DNA of 44,277 nt from Acidobacteriaceae bacterium (GTDB lineage: Bacteria > Acidobacteriota > Terriglobia > Terriglobales > Acidobacteriaceae), in contig JBDUDA010000001.1 in NCBI GenBank assembly GCA_040003205.1, positions 1-44,277 on the forward strand. Reading direction: 5' to 3'. Both the position numbers and the translations under genes were made by a program. Under the pieces are notes generated by a model. The model worked only from the letters and a program-made list of their open reading frames with translations. It did not search any database and was not told the origin of the DNA. The first letter of the stretch is position 1; each line of letters starts with the position of its first letter. Shown here piece after piece: positions 986 through 40,197 of this stretch.

Positions 986-1044
986 AGGGATGCTTCGACT
1001 TCTTGCGCTTTCGCTAGCGAAAGCGCAATCCGCTCAGCATGACA
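986..1044 (-). repeat. TGTCAT...CCCTAT structured palindromic element, long form, reverse orientation
   Basis: Reads AGGGATGCTTCGAC-[perfect 26-nt palindrome ttgcgctttcgctagcgaaagcgcaa]-TCCGCTCAGCATGACA. It starts 2 nt after the rfbD stop. Confidence 0.85.
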
Positions 1045-1572
1045 TTAGCTTATAAGGGCAACTTCGACTTGTAGGGAGGTCGTCCGAACCGCGCAACCGA
1101 TCGCCGCTGGAGAGAATCATAAGAGTGACTTTTACTCTGCCGAATTTCGGCAATAATCGTGCCTCCGGTTCGAGGTACCGCAACATGGTTCCAGCGCACT
1201 TTTCCCGCAGTGACGATGAGCACGAAAAGAGCTTTCGGTCGCAGGCAGATGAAACGTCTACAACATCTCTGTCGCTTCAACAGCCGCCCAACTTTTCCGA
1301 ACCGACGACTGGCCCCGTGAAGAAGGAAGCGAGACGTAGCGACCGGCGGATTTTATCCCGACCCGACGGCATTATCTCGAATATCGAGAACGCGACTTAT
1401 ACCGTCCTTCGCAAGCACGCAAAAGGATCGTCGTAGCGCCCGCCTCAGGCTGAAGGGCTCACTTCTTTTTTTACGCTCAGAGTTCTTCCCACCGTAGAAT
1501 GCCAAACTGAATCATCCAAATTCGAAAACTTGTCGAAGCTTGTTCAACTAACGCCAGCGCAATGGAGGAACC

Positions 1573-3507
1573 GTGCCTCTCACCGCAATTGATTGGATGG
1601 TGATTGTCGGATATCTGCTGGTCAATTTGATGATCGGCATTTACTACCGTCGCCGCGCCAGCGGGAACACCGAAGAATTCTTCATCTCAGGGCGCGACGT
1701 TTCGTGGTGGCTGGCCGGAACCTCAATGGTGGCGACGACTTTCGCCGCCGATACTCCGCTATTGGTGGCTGGACTAGTTGCCCGGCAGGGTATTGCGGGC
1801 AATTGGATCTGGTGGGGCTTATGCGTTGGCGGCATGCTGACGGTTTTCTTTTTCGCACGCTACTGGCGACGGGCCGAAATCCTAACTGACGTGCAGTTCG
1901 TTGAAGTGCGCTATGGCGGGCCGGCGGCCGCATTTTTGCGCGGGTTCAAAGCCGTCTATCTCGGACTGTTTATGAACTGCTTTATCCTGGGATGGGTCAC
2001 GCAGGCGATGATCAGCATTATCACTGTGCTGCTCGGACCCGTGATCGCGCAGGGCAGAGTTTTGCAACTCACGCTGGCGAGCCACACGTTTCAATACACG
2101 CTGGGGGATCCTCGCACCACTTCCCTTCTGATCTGCATTTTTATTCTGATTCCGTTTACCGGGCTTTACACGTTTATCGGCGGACTCTGGGGAGTCCTGG
2201 TCACCGATCTTTTTCAGTTCGCATTGAAGATGACCATGATCATCGTGCTCGCGTGGGTGGCGGTTTCGAAGATTGGCGGGATACAGGCGTTGCAGGTTCA
2301 TCTACAAGTGATCGGCGACAACATGCGCAACAGCGGAATTGAAACCGCGAATCCGGTGGCGTTCTTCCCAGATTTTCGTTCCGGACTCACCAGCAATGCG
2401 GTGTGGACCCTGCCGTTACTGACATTCTTTGTTTATCTGGCAATGCAATGGTGGCTGGCGTGGTATCCGGGAGCGGAGCCGGGCGGCGGTGGATACGTTG
2501 CGCAAAGAATGTTCAGCGCAAAAGATGAAAAGAATTCTCTGGGCGCGACCCTCTGGTTCAACATCGCGCACTACGCGTTGCGTCCATGGCCGTGGATCGT
2601 TACTGGACTGGTCGCGGTCGCGGTTTACTCTCCCTACGGAGGCATTCATCCCAGCGCTGCTTTTGCGCAGAATCCTGAGCAGGGTTATGTGATGGTGCTT
2701 CGCGACTACCTGCCTCCGGCTCTGAGAGGATTGATGGTGGCGGCATTTCTCGCCGCCTTCATGTCCACCATTGGAACGCAGTTGAACTGGGGCAGCTCAT
2801 ACCTTGTGAACGACCTCTACAAGCGTTTTATCGTGCGCGGAGCCGATGAACGACATTATGTATTCATCAGCAAAATTTTTACCGTGCTCCTGGTTCTCGT
2901 CAGCGGCTTTACGGCGATGCAGTTGTCTTCCATCAATCAAGGGTGGCAACTCGTGCTTAACATCGGATTCGGTACGGGCGCGGTATACATCCTGCGCTGG
3001 TACTGGTGGCGAATTAACGCGTGGAGCGAAATCTCCGCCATGCTCGCCGCCGCCGTGGTCACGCTTGCGCTCAACCGCGTGACCTTCGCGGGAAACAGTG
3101 CGATCGTTTACGCCAAGACCGCTCTTATCACTGGCGGGATCACGACGATTGTCTGGTTGATTGCGACTTTTATGACTCCTCCGGAGTCGAAAGAGACATT
3201 AGTAGGGTTCTACAGACGCGTTCATCCCACTGTGTACGGCTGGAAGCGCATTGCGAAGCTTGTGCCTGAGCTTCCAGAGGTAAGAGATGTTGCCGGTAAT
3301 ACTTTCGACTGGCTGATGGGATGCGTGATGGTTTATGGATGCCTGTTCGGCATCGGCAAAATTGTTTTCCAGCAGTGGGCGTGGGGAATCGCGCTATTGA
3401 TTATTTCTGCTACCGCCGGGTATCTGATTTTTTGGGACTTGTCGCGTCGAGGCTGGGCGACGTTCTCGGGAGAGACGGTCCTGCCAAAGCAGCCAGCGCA
3501 AAAGTGA
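1573..3507 (+). CDS. sodium:solute symporter (SSS) family transporter
   Basis: 644-aa polytopic membrane ORF with SSS-like N-terminus (FFISGRDVSWWLAGTSMVATTFAADTPL). GTG start is preceded by GGAGGA at 1564-1569. Confidence 0.85.
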   Translation: MPLTAIDWMVIVGYLLVNLMIGIYYRRRASGNTEEFFISGRDVSWWLAGTSMVATTFAADTPLLVAGLVARQGIAGNWIWWGLCVGGMLTVFFFARYWRRAEILTDVQFVEVRYGGPAAAFLRGFKAVYLGLFMNCFILGWVTQAMISIITVLLGPVIAQGRVLQLTLASHTFQYTLGDPRTTSLLICIFILIPFTGLYTFIGGLWGVLVTDLFQFALKMTMIIVLAWVAVSKIGGIQALQVHLQVIGDNMRNSGIETANPVAFFPDFRSGLTSNAVWTLPLLTFFVYLAMQWWLAWYPGAEPGGGGYVAQRMFSAKDEKNSLGATLWFNIAHYALRPWPWIVTGLVAVAVYSPYGGIHPSAAFAQNPEQGYVMVLRDYLPPALRGLMVAAFLAAFMSTIGTQLNWGSSYLVNDLYKRFIVRGADERHYVFISKIFTVLLVLVSGFTAMQLSSINQGWQLVLNIGFGTGAVYILRWYWWRINAWSEISAMLAAAVVTLALNRVTFAGNSAIVYAKTALITGGITTIVWLIATFMTPPESKETLVGFYRRVHPTVYGWKRIAKLVPELPEVRDVAGNTFDWLMGCVMVYGCLFGIGKIVFQQWAWGIALLIISATAGYLIFWDLSRRGWATFSGETVLPKQPAQK

Positions 3508-3521
3508 CCGCGTACCGAAAA

Positions 3522-3552
3522 AGCAGGTCCCTCGGCTTCGCTCGGGATGACA
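3522..3552 (-). repeat. short-form element (CTGCT-tail variant), reverse orientation
   Basis: agcaggtccctcggcttcgctcgggatgaca. Its reverse complement is TGTCATCCCGA-GCGAAGC-CGAGGGACCTGCT. Confidence 0.8.
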
Positions 3553-3657
3553 GAGCTTTTCTTCCTACACGCGCTCGCTCGCGATGACAGAGTTTTTCTT
3601 CTTACACGCGACGCTCGCGATGACACAGGCTTTGCTCGCGACGACAGTTTCCTTCTG
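3541..3657. repeat. degenerate tandem array of the element end-module CTCG(G/C)GA(T/C)GACA
   Basis: There are four direct copies starting at 3541, 3578, 3614 and 3635. The first two units are about 37 nt and near-identical (gatgacagagYttttcttcYtacacgcg). The array lies between the convergent SSS and PLC genes. Confidence 0.75.
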
Positions 3658-3674
3658 ATTAACTTTTTTACGAT

Positions 3675-3705
3675 TGTCATTCCGAGCGCAGCGAGGAATC
3701 CCTAT
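3675..3705 (+). repeat. short-form element, forward orientation
   Basis: tgtcattccgagcgcagcgaggaatccctat. ATTCC/GGAAT closing boxes flank a GCGCAGC core. Confidence 0.8.
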
Positions 3706-10902: not shown

Positions 10903-10959
10903 TGTCATGTTGAGCGGACGGAGTCGCGCCAGCGACCGAGGGTAGTCGAAATATCCCTG
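10903..10959 (+). repeat. TGTCAT...CCCTAT element, long form, forward
   Basis: tgtcatgttgagcggacggagtcgcgccagcgaccgagggtagtcgaaatatccctg. Close copy of the element at 27770-27827. Confidence 0.85.
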
Positions 10960-10977
10960 CTGAGATTTCGTGGAGCC

Positions 10978-11039: not shown

Positions 11040-11278
11040 ACCTTATAGGAGACAATTCTCGGGCAGCGGGCACTTTGGCCTCTTCCGTGCTCTTAGGAGA
11101 GTTGCGGGGCAGACGCCTCCGGCTTCTGGCGTATCGAAGCTTGGCGTCGAGGTGATTCGTGGTCCTCTCCACCGTTGGTCGCCCGTCTCTTTCGGCCGTC
11201 TCAGACCCGGCGCGCCTTTCGGCCAGGCAAAAAAATATACCCGGGTGTGAAAGGTTTTTCACAGCCCTCCGGCTGGCA

Positions 11279-12280
11279 ATGCTGTCAGCGGCGTGTCTGT
11301 CAACGATATCAGGCTGGGCATCGGACGCCGGCGCCGGCATTCCCAATTCCGCCGAAGCACCTGTCGCCTCCATATCCATCAAGAAGAACAGCGAGTACGA
11401 CGTTGGCAGCATTGGACAGCGCGGCGTCGGCAAAGGCATGAATCTCTACTCCATAGAAAAGGAGCGTGCCCTAGGAGAAGCGATGGCGGCCATGATTGAC
11501 CGCAATACCAAGTTCGTCGCCGACCAGGAAGTTTTCGACTACGTCAATCGGCTGGGACGCAAGCTCGCGCGCAGCTCCGACGCAGAAGTACCTTTCACGA
11601 TCAGGGTGATTGACTCTCCGGACCTGAAGGTCTTTTCACTGCCAGGCGGCTTCCTCTATGTCGCCAAGGGCTTGATTATGGAGCTCGATAACGAGGCTGA
11701 ACTCGCCGGAATGATGGCTCACGAGATAGCACATGTGGCCGCGCGCCATGCGTCACGCACTGCAACGCGCAGATATGCCTGGAATATGGCGGCGATTCCG
11801 CTCGCGCAAGTGACTGGGCCCGCCGGATTAGGCGTGAAACAGATCGCGTCGCTGACATTCAAGAAAATCAGCCGCGACGCTGAAAACGAGGCCGATCTTC
11901 TGGGGATTGAATATCAATATACCGCCGGATACGATCCGCAGGCTTTTCTTGACGCGCTGGAGAAATTACACGCCAAAGAGGTCCAAAAGCGCACGGTCAT
12001 CGCCAAGGGGCTGCCTGCGCTCGGATTCATTGACAAGCTTCCGCTGCATGACCGGATCTCACGCGCCTTCTCGAATTATCCCGCGACCCAGGAGCGCATT
12101 GAGAGAGTACAAAGCGAGATTGCCACGCTTCTGCCCAGCCGCAATGAATACGTAACGGATTCGAGCGAGTTCCAGGACGTGAAGGCCAGGCTCGGACTCG
12201 CAGACCTTCCGATTCTGCACCATCACCACGCCGGGGATGGCGTTGCTAATCCACCGATTCTTCATCGAGGAGCACGATAA
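11279..12280 (+). CDS. M48-family zinc metallopeptidase
   Basis: HExxH motif (MAHEIAHVAARH) with downstream NEADLLGIEY. The start is uncertain: the ORF is open from 11159, and ATG 11279 gives a signal-like MLSAACLSTISGWA. Confidence 0.78.
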   Translation: MLSAACLSTISGWASDAGAGIPNSAEAPVASISIKKNSEYDVGSIGQRGVGKGMNLYSIEKERALGEAMAAMIDRNTKFVADQEVFDYVNRLGRKLARSSDAEVPFTIRVIDSPDLKVFSLPGGFLYVAKGLIMELDNEAELAGMMAHEIAHVAARHASRTATRRYAWNMAAIPLAQVTGPAGLGVKQIASLTFKKISRDAENEADLLGIEYQYTAGYDPQAFLDALEKLHAKEVQKRTVIAKGLPALGFIDKLPLHDRISRAFSNYPATQERIERVQSEIATLLPSRNEYVTDSSEFQDVKARLGLADLPILHHHHAGDGVANPPILHRGAR

Positions 12281-15054: not shown

Positions 15055-15119
15055 TGTCATCTTGAGCGGAGCATCTTTGCTCGCTCGCGAGCAGAGACGC
15101 GGAGTCGAAAGATCCCTAT
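15055..15119 (+). repeat. TGTCAT...CCCTAT element, long form, forward
   Basis: tgtcatcttgagcggagcatctttgctcgctcgcgagcagagacgcggagtcgaaagatccctat. Closing boxes are ATCTT/AAGAT. Confidence 0.85.
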
Positions 15120-20403: not shown

Positions 20404-20411
20404 TTGGAAGC

Positions 20412-27600: not shown

Positions 27601-27700
27601 TCACGAAATCACTGAACGCCGATAATCGCCGGGGCCGCGTTCCATGCAGAATAGAGTCGTCCCCCGATTCGTTTATGCTCAGGGAGGCGGTCAACGAATT

Positions 27701-27759: not shown

Positions 27760-27769
27760 AAGTAATTAT

Positions 27770-29013: not shown

Positions 29014-29037
29014 ATCCGATTTCTTATTGCAGATATA

Positions 29038-30156
29038 ATGAGCGCAACCATGAAGCTGCGCGGCGTCATTCTTTTTGTTGCAAGTTTCACGCTGGCTGCT
29101 GGCCTCTTTGCGCAGCAGGATTCCCCACCGAGTTCTGGGGCCGACACTCTGCCCTCCGCGCCCTCGGCGACCGTGCGCCAACAAAAAAAATCCCCGCCTC
29201 CAGCCCCAACGGCCGCGCCAACTCCAGCGCCTGCGGCCGCTACAACCGATGACCCCAAGCCGCAAGCTCCGCCTGCGTCGGAGTCCAGTAGGTCGCCCGC
29301 CCCGGTTGAGCCGGCAGACACGACCATCCGACGCACCGTGAATGAAGTTAACGTTGTGTTCACCGTCACAGATCGTCACGGACACTATGTGAACGATCTG
29401 AAGAAAACCGATTTTCAGGTGCTGGACGACAATAAGCCGGCTGCGGAGATTCGCAGCTTCCACCGCGAAACCGATTTGCCTTTGCAGGTTGGCCTTCTGG
29501 TGGACGCGAGCAATTCGGTGCGCGACCGTTTTAAGTTCGAGCAGGAATCCGCGATTGAGTTTTTGAGCCAGACTATCCGTCCGAAGTATGACCGGGCTTT
29601 CGTGGTCGGATTCGATGTCACTCCTGAGGTCACGCAGGATTTCACTGACAATACCGAAGCGCTCTCCGTGGGCGTTCGCGCGCTGCGGCCGGGCGGCGGG
29701 ACGGCGATGTACGATGCGCTCTACTTCGCGTGCCGCGACAAACTCCTGAAAGAGCAGCAGGACGTCGCAACCAGGCGCGCGATCATCCTTCTTAGCGACG
29801 GGGATGACAATCAGAGCCACGTGTCGCGCGAAGAAGCAATTGAGATGTCGCAGCGCGCCGAGGTCGTCGTTTACACCATCAGTACGAATGTGAGTGGAAA
29901 TCCGGACCGGGGCGACAAAGTATTACAGCGTATCGCGGAAGCTACCGGAGGCCGCGCCTTCTTTCCATTTCAAATCAGAGACGTTGCGAATGCGTTCGCG
30001 GAAATTCAGAATGAACTACGCAGTCAGTACGCGCTCTCATATAAACCCGCCGAACTCGCCGCAGGCGGACGCTATCACTCGATCGAAATCATTGCCCAAA
30101 ATCACAAGGGATTGAGGATTCGCAGCCGGCATGGCTACTACGCGCCCGCGCAGTAG
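29038..30156 (+). CDS. secreted VWA-domain protein (acidobacterial VWFA-related type)
   Basis: Signal peptide and Pro/Ala-rich linker. Contains the pre-VWA module LKKTDFQVLDDNKPAAEIRSF, an intact MIDAS motif LLVDASNS, ILLSDGDDNQS, and a C-terminal RSRHGYYAPAQ. Confidence 0.8.
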   Translation: MSATMKLRGVILFVASFTLAAGLFAQQDSPPSSGADTLPSAPSATVRQQKKSPPPAPTAAPTPAPAAATTDDPKPQAPPASESSRSPAPVEPADTTIRRTVNEVNVVFTVTDRHGHYVNDLKKTDFQVLDDNKPAAEIRSFHRETDLPLQVGLLVDASNSVRDRFKFEQESAIEFLSQTIRPKYDRAFVVGFDVTPEVTQDFTDNTEALSVGVRALRPGGGTAMYDALYFACRDKLLKEQQDVATRRAIILLSDGDDNQSHVSREEAIEMSQRAEVVVYTISTNVSGNPDRGDKVLQRIAEATGGRAFFPFQIRDVANAFAEIQNELRSQYALSYKPAELAAGGRYHSIEIIAQNHKGLRIRSRHGYYAPAQ

Positions 30157-30171
30157 CAGTCACCTGCAACG

Positions 30172-31224
30172 TTACTCGTGCTTGGGCACCGCGTAGTAAC
30201 CCGAACGCGCCTGAATCTTATAGTCCTTCGTGTTAGGCCGCACTTCAACCTTCCTGAAAGTCCCGTCCAGCGCAGTGTTCACGGGGGTGTAGCCAATGTT
30301 GTACTGGCTGCGAAGCTCGTTGGAAATTTGGTCGAAGGCAGATTTCAGCTTGTCCATCTTGTTTCCGACTTCGATGACTCTGCCTCCGGTTTCCTGCGCA
30401 AGTTTTTTCATTTCGCTGTCGCCGGAGAAGCCTCCAAAGCCACCGTAAAATCCGCGGTCCGCGCACAACAAAACGTAAACAATGCTGTCCGATTTCTGCG
30501 CGGCTTCCTCGGCGTCTTTTAGTTTGAGCTGGCTGCCCTGATCTTCTCCGTCGGTGAGGATGATCATGGCTTTGCGTCCAACTTGCTGCGCGAGCTCATC
30601 GTGCGACGCGAGATAGATGGCGTCATAGAGAACCGTGCCCTTCGGCCCGTTCGCGGTGGGAACCGGACCGCCGCCCATGCCCGGAATCACGCCGCCGCCA
30701 CCCCCGGTATTGATGGTCGTACTGTTCATGGCTACTTTCAGCAGATGGACGGAGCTGGTGAAATCCTGCAACAGATTGGCATTCACATTAAAATCGAGCA
30801 CGAAGGCCAAATCTTTTTCGCGCATGATCTGGCTGAGGAAGTCGCCTCCAACCTGCTTTTCCATGTCAAGCACGCGAGCCTGGCTGCCGCTGGAGTCAAT
30901 CAGAATTCCGAGCGTTAGCGGGAGATTGGATTCCGCCGTGAAGTACTTGATGGTTTGTGGTTTGCCATCCTCGAAAATTTGAAAATCATTTTTCGTGAGG
31001 CTGGGGATGAGACCGCCCTTTTTATCCTTGACGTTGAAAAAGAGCTGGACCACGTTGACGTTGACCTTAAGGGTCTCCATTGACTGGTCGCGGGATTGGT
31101 CGTTGCCTGTTTGGTCGCCTGTCTTCTGGTCCCCTGACTGACTGAAGCCCGGGCTGGAGAGAGCGATCGAAAAACACAGCGCCACGAGCGCGCTCGACAA
31201 TCGGAAAAAGGAAGGCTTACGCAT
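30172..31224 (-). CDS. secreted VWA-domain protein (paralogue 2)
   Basis: Signal peptide. Contains LTKNDFQIFEDGKPQTIKYF, MIDAS motif ILIDSSGS, IILTDGEDQGS, and a C-terminal ARSGYYAVPKHE. It is convergent with paralogue 1, with 15 nt between the stops. Confidence 0.8.
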   Translation of the reverse strand: MRKPSFFRLSSALVALCFSIALSSPGFSQSGDQKTGDQTGNDQSRDQSMETLKVNVNVVQLFFNVKDKKGGLIPSLTKNDFQIFEDGKPQTIKYFTAESNLPLTLGILIDSSGSQARVLDMEKQVGGDFLSQIMREKDLAFVLDFNVNANLLQDFTSSVHLLKVAMNSTTINTGGGGGVIPGMGGGPVPTANGPKGTVLYDAIYLASHDELAQQVGRKAMIILTDGEDQGSQLKLKDAEEAAQKSDSIVYVLLCADRGFYGGFGGFSGDSEMKKLAQETGGRVIEVGNKMDKLKSAFDQISNELRSQYNIGYTPVNTALDGTFRKVEVRPNTKDYKIQARSGYYAVPKHE

Positions 31225-31366
31225 GCAATTTGCTCTCGCTATCTTTTTGGTAGTCTAGTGCTGCCAGTTTAGATGCATAAAAATGGACATGTCCGCATCG
31301 AAGCTAGGAAGAGCGAAAACGCTCACCGAATAAGCATAGCGGTAGCTGGCTCAGCTGGCCAGGAGA

Positions 31367-31397
31367 AGCAGGTCCCTCGGCTGCGCTCGGGATGACA
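31367..31397 (-). repeat. short-form element (CTGCT-tail variant), reverse
   Basis: agcaggtccctcggctgcgctcgggatgaca. It lies in the divergent region between VWA paralogues 2 and 3. Confidence 0.8.
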
Positions 31398-31440
31398 GTT
31401 TGTGTAATAGCGAGAGACCCTACTGACGGAAAGGCTCCTC

Positions 31441-32838
31441 ATGGCGATCGCGCGACCGTTGAAAAAAATTGGCTTTTGGCGAACCGTGATGGTGGCGCTT
31501 TTCATGGTCTCTACCGTTGCTACGGGACAGCAAGCGGCCCAAAATCCTGATCAGGGCATCCCGGACGCCCCCTCCACGGTACAACCTCCTAAACCGGCGC
31601 CGACCCTTCCCGATAAAATCGCGCCTGAAACTGGACCTCCCGGCAGATCGAGTGAAGATAGCTCGAGCGGAGATAGCGCTCACGGAGCGATCCCGGACTC
31701 GGTTCCGGCGCCGCCTCCGGGTACGCCGTCTTCCGACGAGCCCGCTCAGCCCGCCCCACCTCTGAACGTCAAAACGGTTCCGGAAGGTGGCGCGACTCCT
31801 GACCAAAATGCCGCAGGCGCCACTCCTGCCAACGGCGCGGGCAAGAATGAAGAACTTTTCAAGATTGTGGCGACTGTAAACCAGGTGCTCATTCCGGTAA
31901 GGGTCACAGACGGTTCCGGCCGGATGGAAAACGGCTTGCTGCCGAAGGACTTCTCGATCTACGAAGAAGGCAAGAAGCAGGCCCTGAACTTCTTCACCAG
32001 CGACCCATTCGCGCTCTCTGCGGCAATCGTACTCGATCTCGGCATGCCGGATATCGCAGTCCAAAAAGTGAATCAGACATTCACCGCCTTGCAGGGTGCG
32101 TTCAGTCCCTATGATGAGGTCTCTGTCTACACATACAGTTCAACGGTCGGCAAAGCCACTGACTTCGGAGCAGCCGGACAAAGACTTACGTCAGCGATGA
32201 TGGGACTAAAGACAGTCAGAGGGCGAAATAACGGGCCTCCGGTCTTAGGAGGACCACTAGGATCGCAGGGTCCCATGGTGAATAACGTTCCCATTGATCC
32301 CGGAGCGCCTATCGTCGTGACTCCGCCGAAAGAGTCTCACGTTTTGAATGACGCCATTCTTGCGGCTGCCCTGGATTTGAGCAGGCGCGACCGGTCGCGC
32401 AGAAAAATCATTTTCATCATCAGCGATGGACGAGAATATCGCAGCACCGCAAGCTACAGCGACGTCCTGAAAGTGCTGCTCTCAAACGGGATCGCAGTCT
32501 ATGGCGTGGGAGTTGAAAGCGCTGCAATTCCCGGCTACAACAAACTTGAAAGATTGCACATCCCCCGTTTTGGATACAGCGATATCCTGCCAAAATACGC
32601 GTCCGCCACGGCTGGCGAGCTCTTCACCGAATATTCCAAGGCCAATATTGAGAGTATTTACTCGCGCGCATTTGGGGATGCCCGCAACCAGTACACTCTC
32701 GGCTATGTCACTCGTGCCACACCCAGCAGCGCCTATCGCGAGATTGAGGTCCGCGTAAGCCGTCCAGAGGTAAAAGTATTCGCCAAGGACGGCTACTATC
32801 CGCTGCCTCGCGGATTGTCCTTGCCTGTGCCCAAGTAG
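31441..32838 (+). CDS. secreted VWA-like protein (paralogue 3, MIDAS motif degenerate)
   Basis: Signal peptide and long Pro-rich linker. Contains LLPKDFSIYEEGKKQALNFF. The position of DxSxS reads IVLDLGMPD. It also has FIISDGREYRS and C-terminal AKDGYYPLPRG. Confidence 0.75.
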   Translation: MAIARPLKKIGFWRTVMVALFMVSTVATGQQAAQNPDQGIPDAPSTVQPPKPAPTLPDKIAPETGPPGRSSEDSSSGDSAHGAIPDSVPAPPPGTPSSDEPAQPAPPLNVKTVPEGGATPDQNAAGATPANGAGKNEELFKIVATVNQVLIPVRVTDGSGRMENGLLPKDFSIYEEGKKQALNFFTSDPFALSAAIVLDLGMPDIAVQKVNQTFTALQGAFSPYDEVSVYTYSSTVGKATDFGAAGQRLTSAMMGLKTVRGRNNGPPVLGGPLGSQGPMVNNVPIDPGAPIVVTPPKESHVLNDAILAAALDLSRRDRSRRKIIFIISDGREYRSTASYSDVLKVLLSNGIAVYGVGVESAAIPGYNKLERLHIPRFGYSDILPKYASATAGELFTEYSKANIESIYSRAFGDARNQYTLGYVTRATPSSAYREIEVRVSRPEVKVFAKDGYYPLPRGLSLPVPK

Positions 32839-32980
32839 GACCGCGCGCGACGGTGATAACCACAGTAACCTGTTAGTAACACACGGCTTTGTGTTATAAA
32901 ACCAGCAGTACAAAAGCCAAAATCTCTCGTCGCAGCGTTCGCCGGATATCCGAACGTTTGTAGCAGGTTTGAGGAAATTC

Positions 32981-33568
32981 TTGAGTTTCATCAACTTTGC
33001 AGCCCGCGAAATTAATTGCAAAATCGTGTATTACGGCGCCGGGCTGGGCGGCAAGACTACCAATCTGCAACACATCTACAAGAAAACAGCCGAGCAGCAG
33101 AAGGGGAAAATGATCTCCCTCGCCACGGAGACGGAACGTACCCTGTTTTTCGATTTCCTTCCGCTGGATTTAGGCTCGGTGCGCGGCTTCAAGACCAGAA
33201 TCCATCTCTATACCGTCCCCGGACAGGTCTTCTACGATGCCAGCCGCAAGCTGATCCTGCGCGGTGTGGACGGCATTGTGTTCGTGGCAGATTCTCAGCA
33301 GGAGCGCATGGACGCCAACGTAGAAGCGCTCGACAATTTGATGGACAACCTCAAAGAACACAACTACGACTTCCAGAAAATTCCCTACGTGCTACAGCTC
33401 AACAAGCGGGATTTGCCTAACATTCTTCCGGTTGACACGTTAACGAAAGAGTTGCGACGAAAGAATGAAACCGTGATTGAGGCGATTGCATTCCAGGGCG
33501 GGGGCGTATTCGAGACCCTCAAAGATATCGCACGACAAGTGCTGGTGGAATTGAAACAAGGCGGGTAG
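32981..33568 (+). CDS. mglA: MglA-type Ras-like small GTPase
   Basis: From TTG 32981 (GAGGA at 32971-32975) the product is 195 aa. It begins (M)[28 protein letters not shown] and continues ...[10 protein letters not shown]...[30 protein letters not shown]...LNKRDL. As I recall it, this is collinear with Myxococcus MglA. The track ORF starts 12 nt upstream. Confidence 0.85.
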
Positions 33569-33650
33569 CCCCAAAGTTTGCGCCTGACACTTTGCTATTT
33601 GTCCTGAAGACTCCCTCAGCGGCTAAAGCCTCATCCAAAACAGGTTTCGC

Positions 33651-33671
33651 GGCACGAGTGAACTTCGTGCC
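33651..33671. terminator. hairpin between convergent mglA and the small ORF
   Basis: ggcacga-gtgaact-tcgtgcc forms a 7-bp stem flanked by modest T/A runs on both sides. Confidence 0.35.
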
Positions 33672-33720
33672 CTTTCGAAACTTTCTACTGTGTTTTTGTT
33701 TCTTCGACGCGACAAACCTT

Positions 33721-33915
33721 CTACGGATGTTTTTCTTTCGCCAGCATGCTCAATTCTTCCATTATTTCTTTGAGACGCTGACGGCGTTCTCCGTTCGCGC
33801 GGGTTGCGAAGGGTTGCGGATCCTCTGATTCGGCGAATTTCTGGTTCAGATTTTGCAGGTTGGCAACTTCAAAGCGGAGAGCCTGCACTCGGGACAGAAT
33901 GTCAGATGCGTACAT
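33721..33915 (-). CDS. hypothetical 64-aa coiled-coil-like protein
   Basis: The ATG at 33915 gives MYASDILSRVQALRFEVANLQNLNQKFAESEDPQPFATRANGERRQRLKEIMEELSMLAKEKHP. No family is recognised. The upstream part of the track ORF runs into repeat sequence. Confidence 0.4.
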   Translation of the reverse strand: MYASDILSRVQALRFEVANLQNLNQKFAESEDPQPFATRANGERRQRLKEIMEELSMLAKEKHP

Positions 33916-33990
33916 ATACCTAGCATACGCTGATTCGTGCAATGCGGTGGCTGGCAGCACATTCGGAAGGCGGACCAAAATAGAGAACCC

Positions 33991-34022
33991 TGTCACTCCG
34001 AGCGAAGCCAAGAAACCCCTAT
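33991..34022 (+). repeat. short-form element, forward
   Basis: tgtcactccgaGCGAAGCcaagaaacccctat. Confidence 0.8.
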
Positions 34023-34074
34023 TTTTTCAGCATAGAACTGGAAATTCGGGAGGGGCGGACAAAAAATAGAAATC

Positions 34075-34106
34075 TGTCATTCCGAGCGAAGCCGAGGAAC
34101 CCCTAT
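34075..34106 (+). repeat. short-form element, forward
   Basis: tgtcattccgaGCGAAGCcgaggaacccctat. Confidence 0.8.
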
Positions 34107-34127
34107 TCCTTCGGCATAGAACTGGAA

Positions 34128-34189
34128 ATAGGGATGCTTCGACTTCAGAGCCTCTTCGTTTCGAAGAGGCTCTTCCGCTCAGCATGACA
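34128..34189 (-). repeat. TGTCAT...CCCTAT element, long form, reverse
   Basis: atagggatgcttcgacttcagagcctcttcgtttcgaagaggctcttccgctcagcatgaca. The inner hairpin is agagcctcttcg/cgaagaggctct. Confidence 0.85.
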
Positions 34190-34194
34190 AGGAA

Positions 34195-35358
34195 TTACTT
34201 GGCTTCAGAAACCGGTGTCGCTCCGAATTCTCGTCGCCCCGCGACCGGACGAGCGGTTCTCGCCACTAGCGTGGGCGCTGGCGCCGCAGCCCCGTAGCGT
34301 TCCATCAGCATGGGAACCATCGCGCCTTCGGCTTCTTTCACAAAAGTGATGCGGCCCTCGGGACTCATGTCCACCTTGATGAAGTCGCCGAGCCTGACCT
34401 GTCCGGTCGCCACCAGACTGGCAAGAGGAAACACCAGGTTTCTTTCGATGGAACGCTTCAAGTGTCTGGCGCCGTACTTGGGATCGGTGCCCTCATGCAG
34501 AAGGAAGTTCTTAACATTCGTCGTACATGAGAAAACAAACTGGTTGGCGGGCGATGCGCTCAAAACGCGCTGCTGGACCATTCCCAGCTCGATTTCCAGG
34601 ATTTGCTGCAAGTGTTCTGGACGAAGTGTCTGGAATACGACGACTTTATCAATCCGGTTCATGAACTCAGGCGTAAATTTGCGCTTGGCTGCATCCACGG
34701 CCGTGCGGTTGATCTTGTCGTCGAGGATGGCATCCACCGCCTGTGGTTTAGGCGCAAATCCCAGACCGCCATCCACTAAGTTGCTCATCTCGCTGGCGCC
34801 AAGATTCGAAGTCATGATAATGATGCACTGCGAAAGGTCAACCCGGCGATTGTCTCCAAGGGTCAGGGTGGCCTTATCGAGGATGCCCAGCAAGAGCTGC
34901 CAGAGGGCGTCCGAGGCCTTCTCGATTTCGTCAAATAGAAGAATCGAAAGTTTCAGCTTGTCCGTATGCCACTGATTCAAAGCTTCCTGCGTGAGCAGAG
35001 GATGAGTTTCGCGGTGTCCGAGGTAGCCGGGAGGCGACCCAATCAGCTTGGCGATCTCGTGGGAGTGCTGGAATTCAGCGCAGTCAATTTTTATGCAAGC
35101 GCGAGCGTCGCCGAACAATGATTCGGCGAGGGCTTCCACCACCCGGGTTTTGCCCGAGCCGGTAGGTCCCAGGAAAAGAAGATTGCCAACCGGACGAGAA
35201 GGCGGGTTCAGACCCGCGAGAAACATCTGGTAGATTTCCGCCACTTTTTCGATCGCGGCATCCTGCCCAACAATCTTTCGACTGAGGGCGCCTTCAAACT
35301 CTCGGGCATCGCTGCTGCGGCGGGTCGGGTCAAGTACGGTATTCGTTACGGTTTTCAT
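34195..35358 (-). CDS. stand-alone single-ring AAA+ ATPase of the ClpA/ClpB D2 lineage
   Basis: 387 aa from ATG 35358 (GAGGGGG lies upstream). It contains a D2-type entry motif KIVGQDAAIEKV, Walker A GPTGSGKT, Walker B LLFDEIEKA, sensor-1 IIMTSNLG, GSPPGYLG, and a ClpB_D2-small-like region (FTPEFMNRIDKVVVF..L). There is no N-domain, D1 or M-domain. Confidence 0.85.
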   Translation of the reverse strand: MKTVTNTVLDPTRRSSDAREFEGALSRKIVGQDAAIEKVAEIYQMFLAGLNPPSRPVGNLLFLGPTGSGKTRVVEALAESLFGDARACIKIDCAEFQHSHEIAKLIGSPPGYLGHRETHPLLTQEALNQWHTDKLKLSILLFDEIEKASDALWQLLLGILDKATLTLGDNRRVDLSQCIIIMTSNLGASEMSNLVDGGLGFAPKPQAVDAILDDKINRTAVDAAKRKFTPEFMNRIDKVVVFQTLRPEHLQQILEIELGMVQQRVLSASPANQFVFSCTTNVKNFLLHEGTDPKYGARHLKRSIERNLVFPLASLVATGQVRLGDFIKVDMSPEGRITFVKEAEGAMVPMLMERYGAAAPAPTLVARTARPVAGRREFGATPVSEAK

Positions 35359-35735
35359 AGGGTCTGGCCCCCTCAATTTCCGTTCGTTTGGGCCTTTATT
35401 CCGTTTCTGTCAGATCGTTTTGCTCACTCGCAAACTGGCTCTCGATGTCACCAGCCCTCGCTTGCCATTCGCATAGTCCATGTGCAAATCAGTCGCCATT
35501 TCCCGTACCGCCCCGATTCTTAATCCCTGCAACGTTTAGATGCGACCACCTTGCTGTTCGAGACACTTACATCGCCTTGGAACATCGTGTAAAGGGAAAG
35601 AGTTTGCGCACGCGAGCGCATTATGTGCCTCGACTATAATTTGGATGTCTGCCATCTAATTCCTCAACCGCGCAACCGGCCCAAGACCTTGGCCGGACGT
35701 AACTGGCGGAGCGCTTGTGCAGCGTTTAGCATGCG

Positions 35736-37244
35736 TTGAAAAGCGGTCCACGGAGAAACATCTTGCGTCGTCTTCAACCTGCGTACGTCGTCACCGTCGT
35801 TTCTTTCATCCTGGTTATAGTTTTCGCGCTGTGCTTTGCCCACACTTCGCTGCCAGTAGCGCAGGCCGCACAAGCCGCCGCGCAACCGCAACCGGTCAAA
35901 GCGGACGCATCGATTCCCCCGAGGGCGAAGCCGGCTGACTTGGTTTTGCCTACTGTAACTCCCGCGCTAAACGGAAGCTCGCTGTACGTGGCCAAGCGTG
36001 GAGACACCATCGCCTCGGTTGCGCACCATTTCGTTCCCCAGACGTCGTACCTGACGACGGTAGAACTAGCAGCGGCGATCCGCAAGTCAAATGGCGATCC
36101 GCAGTCTAATTTTTTGAAGGCCAGCCAGCAAGTCGTAATTCCTGGGATGCTGGACGCTCCAATTGTCGAAAAGCCGGTTCCCGTGGGCCGGGATTTCGAA
36201 GTCCGCGCTGTGTATTTGACCGGACTGATGGCAGGGAGCGATCGTGGACTGAAAATTATTCGTCGCTGGAGAGAATTGGGCGGCAACGCCGTGGTCTTTG
36301 ATATCAAGGATAGCGACGGCAGCATTAACATTCCCTTCGACCATGCGCTCGCCGGAGGCCACCACGTGACCCTGCGCGATCTGCCGAAGTTTACCCGATT
36401 TTTGCACTCCCAGAACATGCATGCGATCGCTCGAGTCGCGATTTTCCGCGATGAACGGCTGGTGGTAGCGCATCCCGAGCTGGCAGTGCAATCGCGAAAG
36501 AATGCCACCACATGGCGGGAGAACGGCAAGCTGGTCTGGGCCGACCCCTCTCAGCCCAAGGTACAGGAATACAACATCGCTCTGGCGAAGAAGGCTGCCG
36601 CGGCCGGAGCGGACGAGATTCAGTTTGACTACGTGCGATTTCCCGCGGAAGGCGACCAGAAAGACGCAAGTTTCTATTTCCAGAAAGAGCATCCGGACTG
36701 GCATCGCTCCGATGTGATTGCGGACTTTCTGAAGCATGCCTACGCTGAGTTACATCCGACCGGCGTTCTGTTGTCTCTAGACGTCTTCGGTATCATGGCC
36801 TGGCAGCGCTCTGTCGACCTGGCGCATACTGGACAGGACATCGTGCAGATGGCGAAGTATTGCGATGTGCTCTCACCCATGATTTATCCCTCGCACTTCT
36901 TTGGCATGGATGGAATCGCGCGTCCCGGTGACGCCCCGGAGCATTTCATCGGCGAATCCATGGAACGCTTCGAGAAAATCACGCAGGGCAGCGGGGTTGT
37001 GATTCGTCCCTGGCTGCAAGCTTTTGCCTGGCGGACGAAGACCTATTCGCCAAAGTACATAGAAGTTCAGGTGCTGGCCTCAAAAGAAAAGGGCGGGATC
37101 GGATTTCTGCTCTGGAATGCGAACAATAATTACAGCAAGCCCTACGCCGCCATGCCCGAGATGCTGGCGGGCAAGGGACGGTATGTGCGTGGAGATGAGA
37201 TACCGGTGGCGGCTACCGCAAAGCCAGTGATCGCGATTCGCTGA
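35736..37244 (+). CDS. membrane-anchored LysM protein with glycoside-hydrolase-like TIM-barrel (DUF4015-like) domain
   Basis: N-terminal TM segment YVVTVVSFILVIVFALCFA and LysM domain YVAKRGDTIASVAHHF. The C-terminal region resembles putative GH-like DUF4015 proteins (RAVYLTG...NAVVFDIKDSDGSINIP...EIQFDYVRFP). TTG start, and the exact start is uncertain. Confidence 0.7.
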   Translation: MKSGPRRNILRRLQPAYVVTVVSFILVIVFALCFAHTSLPVAQAAQAAAQPQPVKADASIPPRAKPADLVLPTVTPALNGSSLYVAKRGDTIASVAHHFVPQTSYLTTVELAAAIRKSNGDPQSNFLKASQQVVIPGMLDAPIVEKPVPVGRDFEVRAVYLTGLMAGSDRGLKIIRRWRELGGNAVVFDIKDSDGSINIPFDHALAGGHHVTLRDLPKFTRFLHSQNMHAIARVAIFRDERLVVAHPELAVQSRKNATTWRENGKLVWADPSQPKVQEYNIALAKKAAAAGADEIQFDYVRFPAEGDQKDASFYFQKEHPDWHRSDVIADFLKHAYAELHPTGVLLSLDVFGIMAWQRSVDLAHTGQDIVQMAKYCDVLSPMIYPSHFFGMDGIARPGDAPEHFIGESMERFEKITQGSGVVIRPWLQAFAWRTKTYSPKYIEVQVLASKEKGGIGFLLWNANNNYSKPYAAMPEMLAGKGRYVRGDEIPVAATAKPVIAIR

Positions 37245-37266
37245 GCCCATTTCTGTCGTAGGGCGA

Positions 37267-37328
37267 ATAGGGATCTTTCGAATCGCAATGGTCTTCGTCC
37301 CGAAGACCATCTCTCCCTCAAGATGACA
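37267..37328 (-). repeat. TGTCAT...CCCTAT element, long form, reverse
   Basis: atagggatctttcgaatcgcaatggtcttcgtcccgaagaccatctctccctcaagatgaca. Closing boxes are ATCTT/AAGAT. Confidence 0.85.
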
Positions 37329-37340
37329 ATGGTCTTTAAG

Positions 37341-37380
37341 GTAGGGATGGGCTTATGAAGGTAAGGGATGGGCTCATGGC
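37341..37380 (+). repeat. 20-nt tandem duplication
   Basis: gtagggatgggcttatgaag is followed directly by gtaagggatgggctcatggc. Both contain an AGGGATG end-module-like core. Confidence 0.7.
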
Positions 37381-37400
37381 TTCGCAACTCTCAACCCAAT

Positions 37401-37461
37401 TGTCATGTTGAGCGGATTACGCTTTCGCGTGCGAAAGCGTAAGAAGTCGAAACATCCCTAT
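37401..37461 (+). repeat. TGTCAT...CCCTAT element, long form, forward
   Basis: tgtcatgttgagcggattacgctttcgcgtgcgaaagcgtaagaagtcgaaacatccctat. Confidence 0.85.
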
Positions 37462-37571
37462 GACCGCGGCAAATGTGTGTGCCTGCGTTAAGTTTCCGTA
37501 ATACCGCACGTGAAGCATGGGTCTTTCGCCTCCCCAGCCCTCGTCGGATATAATTTCCTCAAGGAGTTCTC

Positions 37572-38516
37572 ATGGCGCTGCAAAAAACCGACAAAATCTG
37601 GCACAACGGAAAGCTGATTCGCTGGGACGACGCGACCATCCACGTTATGTCACACGTGGTGCATTACGGATCGTCGGTGTTTGAAGGCGTCCGCTGCTAC
37701 AAGCTGCCGACCGGCCCGGCTATCTTCCGCGCCCAAGAGCACGCTCAACGCCTGCTCGATTCCGCCAAGGTTTATCGCATGGATATGGAATACAGCCGCG
37801 AAGAGATCGTGGCCGCCATGGTCGAACTCATCCAGAGTAATGGCATGTCGCCGTGCTACGTGCGTCCGATTGTGCTACGCGGTTACGGAGAAGCCGGGGT
37901 AAATCCTCTCGGCGGTCCGATCGAGGTTTACATCATCAATTATCCCTGGGGAAAATATCTCGGCACCGGAAACGAGGGCGTGGACGTCTGCGTATCTTCG
38001 TGGACCCGGCTCGCTCCGAACACTCTGCCTGCGATGGCCAAGGCAGGCGCGAATTACATGAATTCGCAACTCATCAAGATGGAAGCCATCATCAACGGAT
38101 ACGTCGAAGGCATCGCTCTCGACGCTAATGGATACGTCAGCGAAGGTTCTGGCGAAAACGTTTTCGTGGTGCGCAATGGCGTGCTGCAAACGGCGCCGCT
38201 GGGAAATTCTGTGCTTCCGGGCATCACCCGGGACTCAGTATTGAAACTCGCTCACGAGCTGAAGATTCCGGTCGCTGAACACGGCATTCCGCGCGAGATG
38301 CTCTACATCGCGGACGAAGTTTTCTTTACAGGTACGGCGGCGGAGATTACTCCAATTCGCTCAGTGGATAAAATCAGCGTCGGCAAAGGCGATGTTGGAC
38401 CCATCACCAAGGCGCTGCAAAAAGAGTTTTATGCTATCGTGCACGGAGAAAAAGCCGACCGCTTTAACTGGCTCACGCCCGTGCCCGTCAGCAGCAAGCA
38501 GCCCGTCGGAGTTTAG
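37572..38516 (+). CDS. ilvE: branched-chain amino acid aminotransferase
   Basis: 314 aa. Contains HVMSHVVHYGSSVFEGVRCY, EGSGENVFVV and LPGITRDSV, typical of class IV IlvE. Confidence 0.93.
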   Translation: MALQKTDKIWHNGKLIRWDDATIHVMSHVVHYGSSVFEGVRCYKLPTGPAIFRAQEHAQRLLDSAKVYRMDMEYSREEIVAAMVELIQSNGMSPCYVRPIVLRGYGEAGVNPLGGPIEVYIINYPWGKYLGTGNEGVDVCVSSWTRLAPNTLPAMAKAGANYMNSQLIKMEAIINGYVEGIALDANGYVSEGSGENVFVVRNGVLQTAPLGNSVLPGITRDSVLKLAHELKIPVAEHGIPREMLYIADEVFFTGTAAEITPIRSVDKISVGKGDVGPITKALQKEFYAIVHGEKADRFNWLTPVPVSSKQPVGV

Positions 38517-38530
38517 GAATTAGTCCGCTG

Positions 38531-38592
38531 ATAGGGATGCTTCGACTCCTTCACCGTTCACCATGTGAACGGTTCTCTCGCTCAGCATGACA
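38531..38592 (-). repeat. TGTCAT...CCCTAT element, long form, reverse
   Basis: atagggatgcttcgactccttcaccgttcaccatgtgaacggttctctcgctcagcatgaca. The inner hairpin is accgttcac/gtgaacggt. Confidence 0.85.
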
Positions 38593-38605
38593 AAATTAAA
38601 AACGA

Positions 38606-38667
38606 GTCATCCTGAGCGAAAAGAATCATTCGCTCGCGAATGATTCTTGCAGTCGAAGGACCCCTAT
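38606..38667 (+). repeat. TGTCAT...CCCTAT element, long form, forward
   Basis: gtcatcctgagcgaaaagaatcattcgctcgcgaatgattcttgcagtcgaaggacccctat. It matches 40136-40197 at 60 of 62 positions. Confidence 0.9.
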
Positions 38668-38721
38668 AGCCGTCAGAATGCCAGCTACAGGGCTAGCCCT
38701 TAGGCGACAGAGGGCCGTAAC

Positions 38722-38753
38722 AGCAGGCCCCCTCGACAGCGCTCGGGATAACA
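38722..38753 (-). repeat. degenerate short-form element (CTGCT-tail variant), reverse
   Basis: agcaggccccctcgacagcgctcgggataaca. Confidence 0.6.
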
Positions 38754-38888
38754 ACAATCCTAGATAGATTGCCGCCATCACAGGCCTTCCAATCGCCCGT
38801 TCTCCCTCTGTCCTACCGCCGTTACTTAGGTCATCTTGGGCATAGTCACTTTTGGGTTCATGATATTCAGGAGCCTTGGAAAGCCTTC

Positions 38889-40010
38889 ATGAATATTGAT
38901 GACCTTTTGCGAATTGCGATGGAGCGCCGCGCCTCCGACTTGCACCTCAAAGTCGGCAACTATCCTCATCTCCGTATTGATGGCGAACTTTTCCCTCTCA
39001 CGGATCAACCTCGCGTCAGCGCCGAAGATATGCTGACCATGGCGTTCAGCATGATGTCGTCGCGTCAGAAGCAGAAGTTCAAAGAGACTACCGAAATTGA
39101 TATGGCATACGGCGTGGCCGGACTCGGCCGCTTCCGTGTGAACGTATTTCAGCAACGCGGCAATGTGGGATTGGTTCTGCGTATGATTCCCACCAAAATT
39201 CGCGCGCTGGACGAACTCTTTCTGCCGAAAATTGTGGAACAGATTTGCGATATGCCCCGCGGCTTAATTCTCGTCACCGGAGTTACGGGATCGGGCAAAT
39301 CCACCACGCTCGCGGCCATGATTGATCGCATCAATTCCAGCCGCGCCGAGCACATTATCACCATTGAAGATCCTATCGAATTTCTGCACCGCGATAAAAA
39401 AGGCTACGTAAATCAGCGCGAGATTGAAGTGGACACTCCCACGTTTTCATCGGCGCTGCGAGCTTCTTTGCGTCAGGATCCGGACGTAATTCTTGTCGGC
39501 GAAATGCGCGATATCGAAACCATCGGCACCGCGCTTCACGCCGCCGAAACTGGACACATGGTTTTCTCCACGCTGCATACCTTGGACGCGGTCGAAACCG
39601 TGAACCGTATCATCTCGGTATTTCCGCCGCCGGAGCAGAAGCAGATTCGTTTGCAACTTGCCGCCGTGCTGCGCGCCGTCGTCAGCCAGCGCCTGGTAAA
39701 GCGCTGCGATGGTGACGGACGAGTGCCCGCGGTCGAAGTCATGATCAACACCGCATACATTCGCGAGTGCATCTTAGTTCCAGAAAAAACTCGCTCGGTG
39801 CGCGAAGCAATTTCGGCTGGTACTTCGCAATACGGCATGCAGACCTTCGATCAATCGTTATGGGATTTATTCCAATCCAACTTGATTGATTATTCGACTG
39901 CTCTCGAAAACGCCTCCAATGCGGACGACTTCAAGTTGCGCATGCAGGGTATTTCGTCCAGCAGCGACGGCTCGCGAAATTCGATGCAAACGGCGGGATT
40001 CGGAAACTGA
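38889..40010 (+). CDS. pilT: type IV pilus retraction ATPase, PilT family
   Basis: From ATG 38889 the sequence begins MNIDDLLRIAMERRASDLHL. Walker A GVTGSGKSTT, Asp box, Walker B ILVGEMRD and His box GHMVFSTLHT are present. The track ORF extends 120 nt upstream into repeat-rich DNA. Confidence 0.88.
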   Translation: MNIDDLLRIAMERRASDLHLKVGNYPHLRIDGELFPLTDQPRVSAEDMLTMAFSMMSSRQKQKFKETTEIDMAYGVAGLGRFRVNVFQQRGNVGLVLRMIPTKIRALDELFLPKIVEQICDMPRGLILVTGVTGSGKSTTLAAMIDRINSSRAEHIITIEDPIEFLHRDKKGYVNQREIEVDTPTFSSALRASLRQDPDVILVGEMRDIETIGTALHAAETGHMVFSTLHTLDAVETVNRIISVFPPPEQKQIRLQLAAVLRAVVSQRLVKRCDGDGRVPAVEVMINTAYIRECILVPEKTRSVREAISAGTSQYGMQTFDQSLWDLFQSNLIDYSTALENASNADDFKLRMQGISSSSDGSRNSMQTAGFGN

Positions 40011-40022
40011 TTCGGCGTGGGA

Positions 40023-40081
40023 ATAGGGATGTTTCGACTCTCTAAGCTTTCGCCAGCGAAAGCTCAGCGCTCAACATGACA
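40023..40081 (-). repeat. TGTCAT...CCCTAT element, long form, reverse
   Basis: atagggatgtttcgactctctaagctttcgccagcgaaagctcagcgctcaacatgaca. Confidence 0.85.
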
Positions 40082-40135
40082 TGGGCTGTTGTGTGGGTAA
40101 TTGGCTGCTCTCTTCCCCTCAACCGTAATCTCGGA

Positions 40136-40197
40136 GTCATCCTGAGCGAAAAGAATCATTCGCTGGCGAATGATTCTTGTAGTCGAAGGACCCCTAT
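40136..40197 (+). repeat. TGTCAT...CCCTAT element, long form, forward
   Basis: gtcatcctgagcgaaaagaatcattcgctggcgaatgattcttgtagtcgaaggacccctat. Confidence 0.9.

Follow-up and report, generated by a model that had tools for sequence, protein, structure and literature searches.

Here we describe a family of short intergenic repeats in a 44,277-nt stretch of DNA from an Acidobacteriaceae bacterium (assembly GCA_040003205.1, contig JBDUDA010000001.1, positions 1 to 44,277; the whole stretch is called the window in the following) and the association of this family with a nuclease gene. The family is real and structured. In other genomes it is specifically associated with an intact and constrained gene for a small GIY-YIG nuclease as well as with decayed derivatives of this gene. 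We propose, at a probability of roughly 0.55, that the copies in the window are non-autonomous members of a Terriglobia system which resembles the repetitive extragenic palindromes (REPs) and their inverted doublets (REPINs), the partner of which is a GIY-YIG nuclease and not a REP-associated tyrosine transposase (RAYT). The full family unit, as present in other genomes, is probably an inverted pair of elements, tails facing inward, set tightly around a stand-alone GIY-YIG gene of the UPF0213/Slx1 branch that codes for ~109 aa. This gene-bearing unit behaves as one entity, and the window copies would depend on a nuclease gene located elsewhere in the genome. In anatomy the repeats are REP/REPIN-like; the new part is the class of the partner enzyme, for which the original prediction, made from the sequence of the window, had proposed to look for a RAYT or a TnpA of the IS200 type.

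A GIY-YIG nuclease gene between inverted repeats

Each long element runs from a head (TGTC) to a tail (CCCTAT). Among 72 tail-to-tail pairs in loci selected for the element, six enclose a spacer of 293-356 nt, and each of these spacers codes for a protein of ~100 aa. All six proteins match PF01541 with E-values of 4e-13 to 5e-10 and 40-50 bits (cut-off 22.6). Four homologues fetched by protein identity alone, and chosen by the length of their contigs, were likewise all bracketed by elements: the (+) element ends upstream of the start codon, at ~10 nt or, in one case, 113 nt, and the (-) element overlaps the stop codon or directly follows it. For a sample independent of the repeat, metagenomes were scanned with two peptide motifs as the only seeds, which yielded 80 loci with 237 element matches in 230 kb. 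Bracketing was scored with a deliberately simple element detector. Of 74 assessable GIY-YIG genes, 52 had elements at both ends, 19 at a single end and 3 at none, the inverted pair lying within about 25 nt of the ~109-aa gene. As a control, the other open reading frames (ORFs) in element-rich loci were bracketed in only 6 of 771 cases (0.8%).

The ends of the gene-bearing units are related to each other. In L125 they form a near-perfect inverted repeat of 52 nt that includes the core, and in L077, L005 and L109 the left and right cores are related, whereas the cores of ordinary doublets are not. Decayed units are found as well: between their element pairs, L172 (870-992) retains residues 4-44 fused to the C-terminal end, and L142 (1473-1592) retains residues 55-96 with a stop codon. 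These remnants are internal-deletion derivatives and point to how gene-less doublets would come about. The gene neighbourhoods of the units are mostly unrelated and non-syntenic. The number of tandem (+) copies (88-nt unit) upstream of one and the same GIY-YIG gene varies between near-identical strains of different metagenomes, four being present in L129 (2527-2887) and three in L128 (31-305) and L131 (1671-1945).

The nuclease consists of a single domain of ~109 aa without an extra DNA-binding domain. Its catalytic residues Y9, Y22, R32, H36, E69 and N88 are invariant in 22 sequences, and two orthologous pairs gave pN/pS values of 0.065 and 0.225. Among solved structures, profile and fold search place the nuclease nearest to the UPF0213 proteins BH0048 and EF2693 and to the structure-specific endonuclease Slx1. 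The profile search found 1zg2 (UPF0213, E 1.6e-4), and Foldseek, queried with a model of mean predicted local distance difference test score (pLDDT) 78, returned 1zg2 (E 4e-4), followed by Slx1 (7cq2, 4xm5, 7cq4) and by 1ywl. A folded-DNA substrate of the bracketed nuclease would agree with the cutting of branched DNA by Slx1. No NCBIfam model names the nuclease, its clade scoring under all cut-offs, and 4,484 homologues are present in the protein collection at E up to 1e-5. Although the Slx1/UPF0213 (YhbQ-like) proteins are its closest relatives in sequence and fold, no repeat association is reported for them in the literature searched. In the same limited collection, nothing was found that links bacterial GIY-YIG nucleases to REP-, REPIN- or MITE-type repeats (MITE, miniature inverted-repeat transposable element), also not via COG2827. 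The protein differs from homing endonucleases of the I-TevI type in that it has no separate sequence-specific DNA-binding domain.

One homologue, P0238, with 83% identity across 79% of the query, carries the label Limnocylindrales (Chloroflexota); either its contig is mis-binned, or it is a sign of the system outside Acidobacteriota. In several units the element tail ATAGGG itself supplies the true stop codon (TAG). ORFs running through elements yield spurious protein extensions: the GIY-YIG ORF is over-called through the downstream antisense element in L129 (3001-3498; P0198, 165 aa) and also in L005 and L090, and such ORFs carry spurious C-terminal tails like ...GRGPST...LRMT. The elements probably also complicate the assembly of metagenome-assembled genomes of Terriglobia.

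Structure, range and placement of the repeats

The long form of the element reads TGTC-[AT+3 nt]-GAGCG-(R)AG-[core hairpin]-NCGNA-GTCGA-[3 nt+AY]-CCCTAT. When folded, the co-varying boxes form an outer stem of 5 bp, flanked by TGTC and CCCTAT as fixed single-stranded ends and followed by a conserved purine-rich internal loop (GAGCG/GTCGA), in which GA/GA are able to form tandem purine pairs and which also holds a G-C/C-G step with a bulged U/T. The third part is the core hairpin, which differs in nearly every copy and is optional in the family. In the short form, the same module carries a GAA loop in place of the core (GAGC-GAA-GYCGA).

Pairing is kept while the sequence varies. In an alignment of 150 copies, taken from the window and from 99 other loci, 91.6% of the cells are paired, as compared to 83.3% for shuffled columns and 24-49% for slid structures. 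The first variable position of the box stem is CG in 125 and GC in 23 of these copies, the second is CG in 138 and UA in 11, with one broken cell at each position. Among 228 long copies 225 have a unique core; 137 of these unique cores are perfect hairpins, the mean stem being 10 bp. The observed cores score 8.8 as compared to 3.8 for shuffled ones. The core is semi-conserved distally (TTCGC-loop-GCGAA), and its proximal 6-8 bp vary freely. The stems of the window copies 984-1044 and 37401-37461 differ solely by two fully compensated pairs. Orthologous cores change by transitions, mismatches arising and then being resolved. The core hairpins in the window had been given as 8-13 bp, a range that we correct to 5 to 12 bp.

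The family is widespread in one class of soil Acidobacteria, the Terriglobia. A pattern scan for the long form in one genome per species (185,579 species), for which ~2 chance matches were estimated from the number of specified bases, gave at least 120 matching stretches. Among the matches listed, 120 of 120 belong to Acidobacteriota, class Terriglobia, and include Acidobacteriaceae, Korobacteraceae, Sulfotelmatobacter and other Terriglobales. In 0.8 Mb of Terriglobia DNA 244 copies were found. Rfam contains no family that matches the elements at the gathering threshold, and even at E up to 1 only one chance-level overlap was seen (BTnc231, E 0.97). A search of the plasmid collection with the consensus gave chance matches only, and no paper describing the elements was found in the literature search.

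The elements lie between tandem (114), convergent (54) and divergent genes (19), the copy nearest a gene end at a median of 32 nt past the stop codon. Neighbouring copies form 72 tail-to-tail pairs, 10 head-to-head pairs and 16 direct pairs. Neither single elements nor doublets are flanked by direct repeats of 2-9 nt above chance, i.e. no target-site duplication was detected. As single strands, doublets are predicted to fold as four-way junctions (-57 to -59 kcal/mol, z ~ -12) composed of a head-head stem, a tail-tail stem and the two core hairpins.

The copies are polymorphic between relatives, as a presence/absence comparison with the closest relative found, L121 (GCA_054930035.1), indicates. 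L121 encodes an IlvE protein of 95% identity and is syntenic with window positions 28000-44277. It contains a single element in its 21 kb, for which the window has no counterpart at the same site, as compared to 11 elements in the shared 16 kb of the window; in L122, a relative at greater distance, 21 kb are free of elements. The two window elements past the T2SSE-like gene (40023-40081 and 40135-40197) correspond in position to a canonical terminator (12918-12937) in L121. In the orthologues of L160 and L205, the palindromic core is precisely missing from one. The divergence between the intergenic DNA of the window and L121 is too high to give exact insertion boundaries.

Proposed mechanism and rival explanations

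The family shares its general habit with REP/REPIN-RAYT systems ('REPtrons'): short imperfect palindromes of high copy number in intergenic regions, often just past stop codons, inverted doublets without target-site duplication, a nuclease-type gene that is itself flanked by inverted copies, copy numbers that vary between relatives, and pairing that is conserved within sequence clouds. It differs in that the flanked gene codes for a GIY-YIG protein (PF01541) instead of an HUH-Y1 protein, in its consensus foot (ATAGGG/TGTCAT as compared to GT[AG]G) and in its two-tiered stem with an invariant internal loop and a hypervariable core. Furthermore, its flanks are common to a whole bacterial class, whereas REPs are described as usually species-specific (PMC6006769). 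MITEs derived from insertion sequences (Correia/NEMIS, RUP) are alike in having terminal inverted repeats around a short spacer and a gene-bearing parent with the same ends next to internally deleted derivatives, which are represented here by L172 and L142. However, in the present family there is no target-site duplication and no DDE transposase, the flanked gene is not a transposase, and a single 'repeat arm' is a self-folding unit that is also found alone. Integron attC sites, which act as folded single strands, resemble the elements in the precedence of structure over sequence, in conserved boxes around a variable palindromic centre and in their location at gene 3' ends; here, in contrast, there is no cassette array, integrase or R/L box consensus (R''-L''/L'-R'), and the copies lie in both orientations beside housekeeping genes (rplT, pheST, ilvE, alaS). 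In fungal mitochondria, small mobile palindromes (double-hairpin elements, GC clusters) occur beside GIY-YIG or LAGLIDADG ORFs, a lead only; they belong to a different domain of life and genome type. On anatomy, attC sites, CRISPR repeats, tRNA-derived repeats and DDE-type MITEs were rejected as identities of the elements.

In the mechanism that we propose, internal deletion of the gene-bearing unit would give gene-less doublets, single elements occurring as well. The nuclease may recognise the folded element, be it a hairpin, a cruciform or the four-way junction of a single-stranded doublet, and would nick it at or near the junction. Copies might then spread or be maintained in trans via host repair or replication. 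Propagation would be restricted to copies that still fold, and for this reason pairing would stay intact while the sequence drifts. Both the cleavage of the elements by the nuclease and their mobilisation are thus what we infer from the association. If so, a Slx1/UPF0213-type nuclease and a junction-forming element could constitute an independently evolved REPIN-RAYT-like replicator, a so far undescribed mobile or semi-domesticated class with a unit of ~460 bp and thousands of gene-less copies; we put this wider view forward tentatively and would not yet call it probable.

Several points weigh against a nuclease-dependent repeat system. To our knowledge, GIY-YIG enzymes only cleave, and no strand-transfer chemistry is known for them that would copy elements to new sites without homology. 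Since the cut comes without rejoining, spread to new sites needs a host pathway, and this is the main weakness of the proposal. No GIY-YIG gene was found within the window by tblastn, a blastx comparison of 39 spacers of ordinary doublets (40-135 nt) with GIY-YIG proteins did not exceed the level of shuffled controls, and no clean filled-versus-empty site was recovered between near-identical strains. In the window the common arrangement is head-to-head with tails toward the genes, opposite to the arrangement that dominates elsewhere. Moreover, of 272 copies (top strand TGTCAT) 173 have the bottom-strand foot ATAGGG, but 34 (~13%) have GTAGGG, which resembles the GTAG foot of REPs, and genes of class 3 and of the terminal inverted repeat-associated tyrosine transposases (TIRYTs) are described from Acidobacteria (PMC6006769; PMC3733652). 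The strongest rival builds on these last observations. According to it, the elements are ordinary REPs moved by an HUH-Y1 enzyme (RAYT, TIRYT or class 3 TnpA) encoded elsewhere, and the GIY-YIG gene is a selfish homing-type gene that colonises doublet spacers and for which the many copies serve as landing sites and homology arms. The doublets, the missing target-site duplication and the 3'-end location all fit REP/REPIN anatomy, the distances between the nuclease gene and the two tails vary, as insertion into an existing doublet would give, and no GIY-YIG enzyme is known to rejoin its cuts. According to their published descriptions, the class 3 HUH-Y1 (CnGA-foot hairpins) and TIRYT repeats of the same phylum also comprise atypical hairpins at high copy number, with ~600 copies in Solibacter usitatus (PMC3733652; PMC6006769), a comparison by description only. 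On the other hand, no Y1 gene was seen adjoining the present elements, and a motif scan detected no ORF with an HUH...Y motif in ~1 Mb of Terriglobia DNA, an amount with a low chance of capturing one. The majority foot is ATAG and not GT[AG]G, the 109-aa protein lacks the I-TevI-type DNA-binding domain that would provide site specificity, and the ends of the nuclease units share their cores, unlike those of ordinary doublets. We consider this explanation unlikely, albeit the most serious competitor; in either case the GIY-YIG protein must recognise the element.

The covariation itself had been taken in the original prediction as a sign of selection on a folded RNA or single-stranded DNA that goes beyond REP-like repeats. 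Functional RNA motifs (3'-UTR stabilisers, terminators or protein-binding riboregulators), the structure of which is kept by selection on transcripts, would account for the conserved pairing, for the purine-rich internal loop with its possible tandem G.A pair, for the position of the first copy shortly past the stop codon and for the lack of canonical terminators at the gene ends of the window, together with the L121 terminator in place of elements. However, the elements match no Rfam family, and singletons between co-directional genes are found in both orientations (21 sense, 19 antisense), i.e. without bias. G:T mismatches do not significantly exceed A:C mismatches (38 versus 24, p = 0.10 with symmetric scoring). 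Copy number drops from 11 to 1 in a close relative, and the tight association with the nuclease gene is that of inverted DNA repeats. A promoter and terminator scan revealed no excess, the elements being without a U-tract. In a DNA palindrome, compensatory change can also come from selection at mobilisation or from intra-strand template switching and by itself is no proof of a folded-RNA function, which we regard as improbable. Since the balanced orientation, the gene contexts, the inverted doublets and the missing target-site duplication are REP/REPIN habits, the evidence favours REP/REPIN-like DNA rather than an RNA gene, and the anatomy is not beyond that of REPs. A secondary role as 3'-end hairpins that stabilise or terminate transcripts, as for REPs, is possible. 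Even less probable are vertically inherited, immobile palindromes (e.g. sites for nucleoid proteins or gyrase) that owe their complementarity to intra-strand template switching and neither to selection nor to mobility. The correction of palindromes by template switching is an established mutational process and would favour this explanation, as do the transitions that create and resolve mismatches in orthologous copies and the uniqueness of nearly all cores, by which few copies look recently duplicated. Against it, the orthologous regions of L121 and the window differ in sites and numbers of elements, near-identical copy pairs exist within the window (38605-38667 with 40135-40197, and 10903 with 27770), the flanks are conserved across the whole class while the cores are free to vary, and there are deletion derivatives of the nuclease unit.

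For long-lived bacterial repeat populations with vertical inheritance, REP/REPIN-RAYT systems serve as the standard example, and all cases known to us rest on HUH-Y1 chemistry. If our proposal is correct, a parallel system based on a GIY-YIG enzyme would show that the REP/REPIN lifestyle has arisen convergently. The small GIY-YIG proteins of the large, uncharacterised UPF0213-like clade would be placed in a biological context for the first time, and a repeat found at many gene 3' ends in one of the most abundant soil bacterial groups would be explained.

Repeat copies in the window and further observations

The window has a G+C content of 55%, and its genes are of the usual chromosomal kind: rmlD, a TonB-dependent-type outer-membrane protein, infC, rplT, pheS, pheT, zapA, lgt, a rluD-like gene, ilvE, a PilT/T2SSE ATPase, recX and alaS. 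The head motif TGTCNNNNNGAGCG matches 17 times (0.7 expected) and the tail motif GTCGANNNNNCCCTAT, allowing up to one mismatch, 13 times (0.6 expected), counts that were reached by no shuffle. A covariance model was built from 15 long window copies and run unfiltered over the window. Together with one divergent long copy (27696-27763) and 6 short ones it gives 22 copies in 44 kb, all intergenic and distributed over 11 intergenic regions, in agreement with the earlier count of at least 22 copies in 11 regions. The box pairs and their positions were all verified. The earlier copy list is correct in its coordinates but had omitted 27696-27763, 38717-38757 and the short copies at 33991 and 34075. 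Its statement that no mobilising gene lies in the window also holds, neither a Y1 transposase nor a GIY-YIG gene having been found there. The copies are the following.

984..1044, minus strand: long element, box ATGCT/AGCAT, 12-bp palindromic core, tail abutting the rmlD stop codon; 75.4 bits
3521..3552, minus strand: short element without core, box ATCCC/GGGAC, CTGCTT tail; 29.5 bits
3553..3660, minus strand: head-only partial copies in tandem, namely two of TGTCATCGCGAGCG plus ~22 nt and a degenerate third
3675..3705, plus strand: short element, box ATTCC/GGAAT; 31.4 bits
10903..10960, plus strand: long element, left half of a tail-to-tail doublet; 57 bits
10979..11039, minus strand: long element, right half of the doublet with 10903..10960; 63.1 bits
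14950..15006, minus strand: long element in a divergent promoter region, head-to-head with 15055..15119; 67.4 bits
15055..15119, plus strand: long element, box ATCTT/AAGAT; 56.7 bits
20949..21009, plus strand: long element, CTGCTT tail, left half of the doublet between rplT and pheS; 54.6 bits
21037..21098, minus strand: long element, CTGCTG tail, right half of the rplT-pheS doublet, ending 21 nt before the pheS start codon; 54 bits
27696..27763, minus strand: divergent long element; 36.9 bits
27770..27827, plus strand: long element, box ATGTT/AACAC; 64.8 bits
31366..31397, minus strand: short element, CTGCTT tail, divergent region; 30.4 bits
33991..34022, plus strand: degenerate short element, first unit of an 84-nt tandem duplication; 12.9 bits
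34075..34106, plus strand: short element, left half of a doublet; 36.8 bits
34128..34189, minus strand: long element, 12-bp core, 6 nt past the stop codon of the AAA/ClpB-like gene; 68.7 bits
37267..37328, minus strand: long element, box ATCTT/AAGAT; 59.5 bits
37401..37461, plus strand: long element, upstream bracket of ilvE; 77.5 bits
38531..38592, minus strand: long element, downstream bracket of ilvE; 64.4 bits
38605..38667, plus strand: long element, near-identical to 40135-40197, upstream bracket of the T2SSE/PilT-like gene; 65.2 bits
38717..38757, minus strand: degenerate short element, CTGCT tail, weak match; 10.9 bits, E 0.31
40023..40081, minus strand: long element, 13 nt past the T2SSE-like stop codon; 69.9 bits
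40135..40197, plus strand: long element, box ATCCT/AGGAC; 64.6 bits

Between 37401 and 40197 the intergenic pairs are head-to-head, and ilvE (37572-38516) as well as the PilT-like gene (38769-40010) are bracketed by inward-facing tails, as is the GIY-YIG gene elsewhere. Only 4 other ORFs among the 771 of the control show this kind of bracketing.

Tandem duplications that involve elements were noted at several places. Window positions 33991-34160 contain an 84-nt duplication of the short element and its spacer (CCCTATT..GCATAGAACTGGAAAT). At 3553-3660 (minus strand) of the window and at 3360-3420 of L125, the element head is duplicated in tandem together with ~12-22 nt of adjacent flank. The breakpoint of these head and flank duplications is the exact head/core boundary, and breakage at the junction could have left this footprint. 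L049 (4531-7671) contains a long tandem array (period ~165 nt), its unit comprising short elements, CTGCT-tail variants and GATGACAAGAGATA... sub-repeats.

Two further observations concern the comparison with L121. Between ilvE and the PilT-like gene, where the window has the elements at 38531-38757, L121 carries an inserted ribbon-helix-helix (RHH) antitoxin/PemK toxin pair (11057-11628). A small ORF between the Arf-like GTPase and AAA/ClpB-like genes (window 33721-34011, minus strand; L121 5793-5999, 68 aa and without a recorded Pfam match there) lies in a region that aligns closely between the two, the elements being located on different flanks of it.

In L007, two tRNA-like sequences (1863-2204), by eye apparently tRNA-Ile and tRNA-Ala, are located between a (-) and a (+) element and separated by short CGTTGGTCG-type repeats. 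Finally, positions 26525-26716 (plus strand) of the window probably encode 6S RNA (ssrS): the model is matched over its full length with 44.5 bits (E 7.6e-6), slightly under the Rfam gathering threshold of 46.4. This candidate lies directly downstream of zapA (26001-26351), a gene order that is common in other bacteria.

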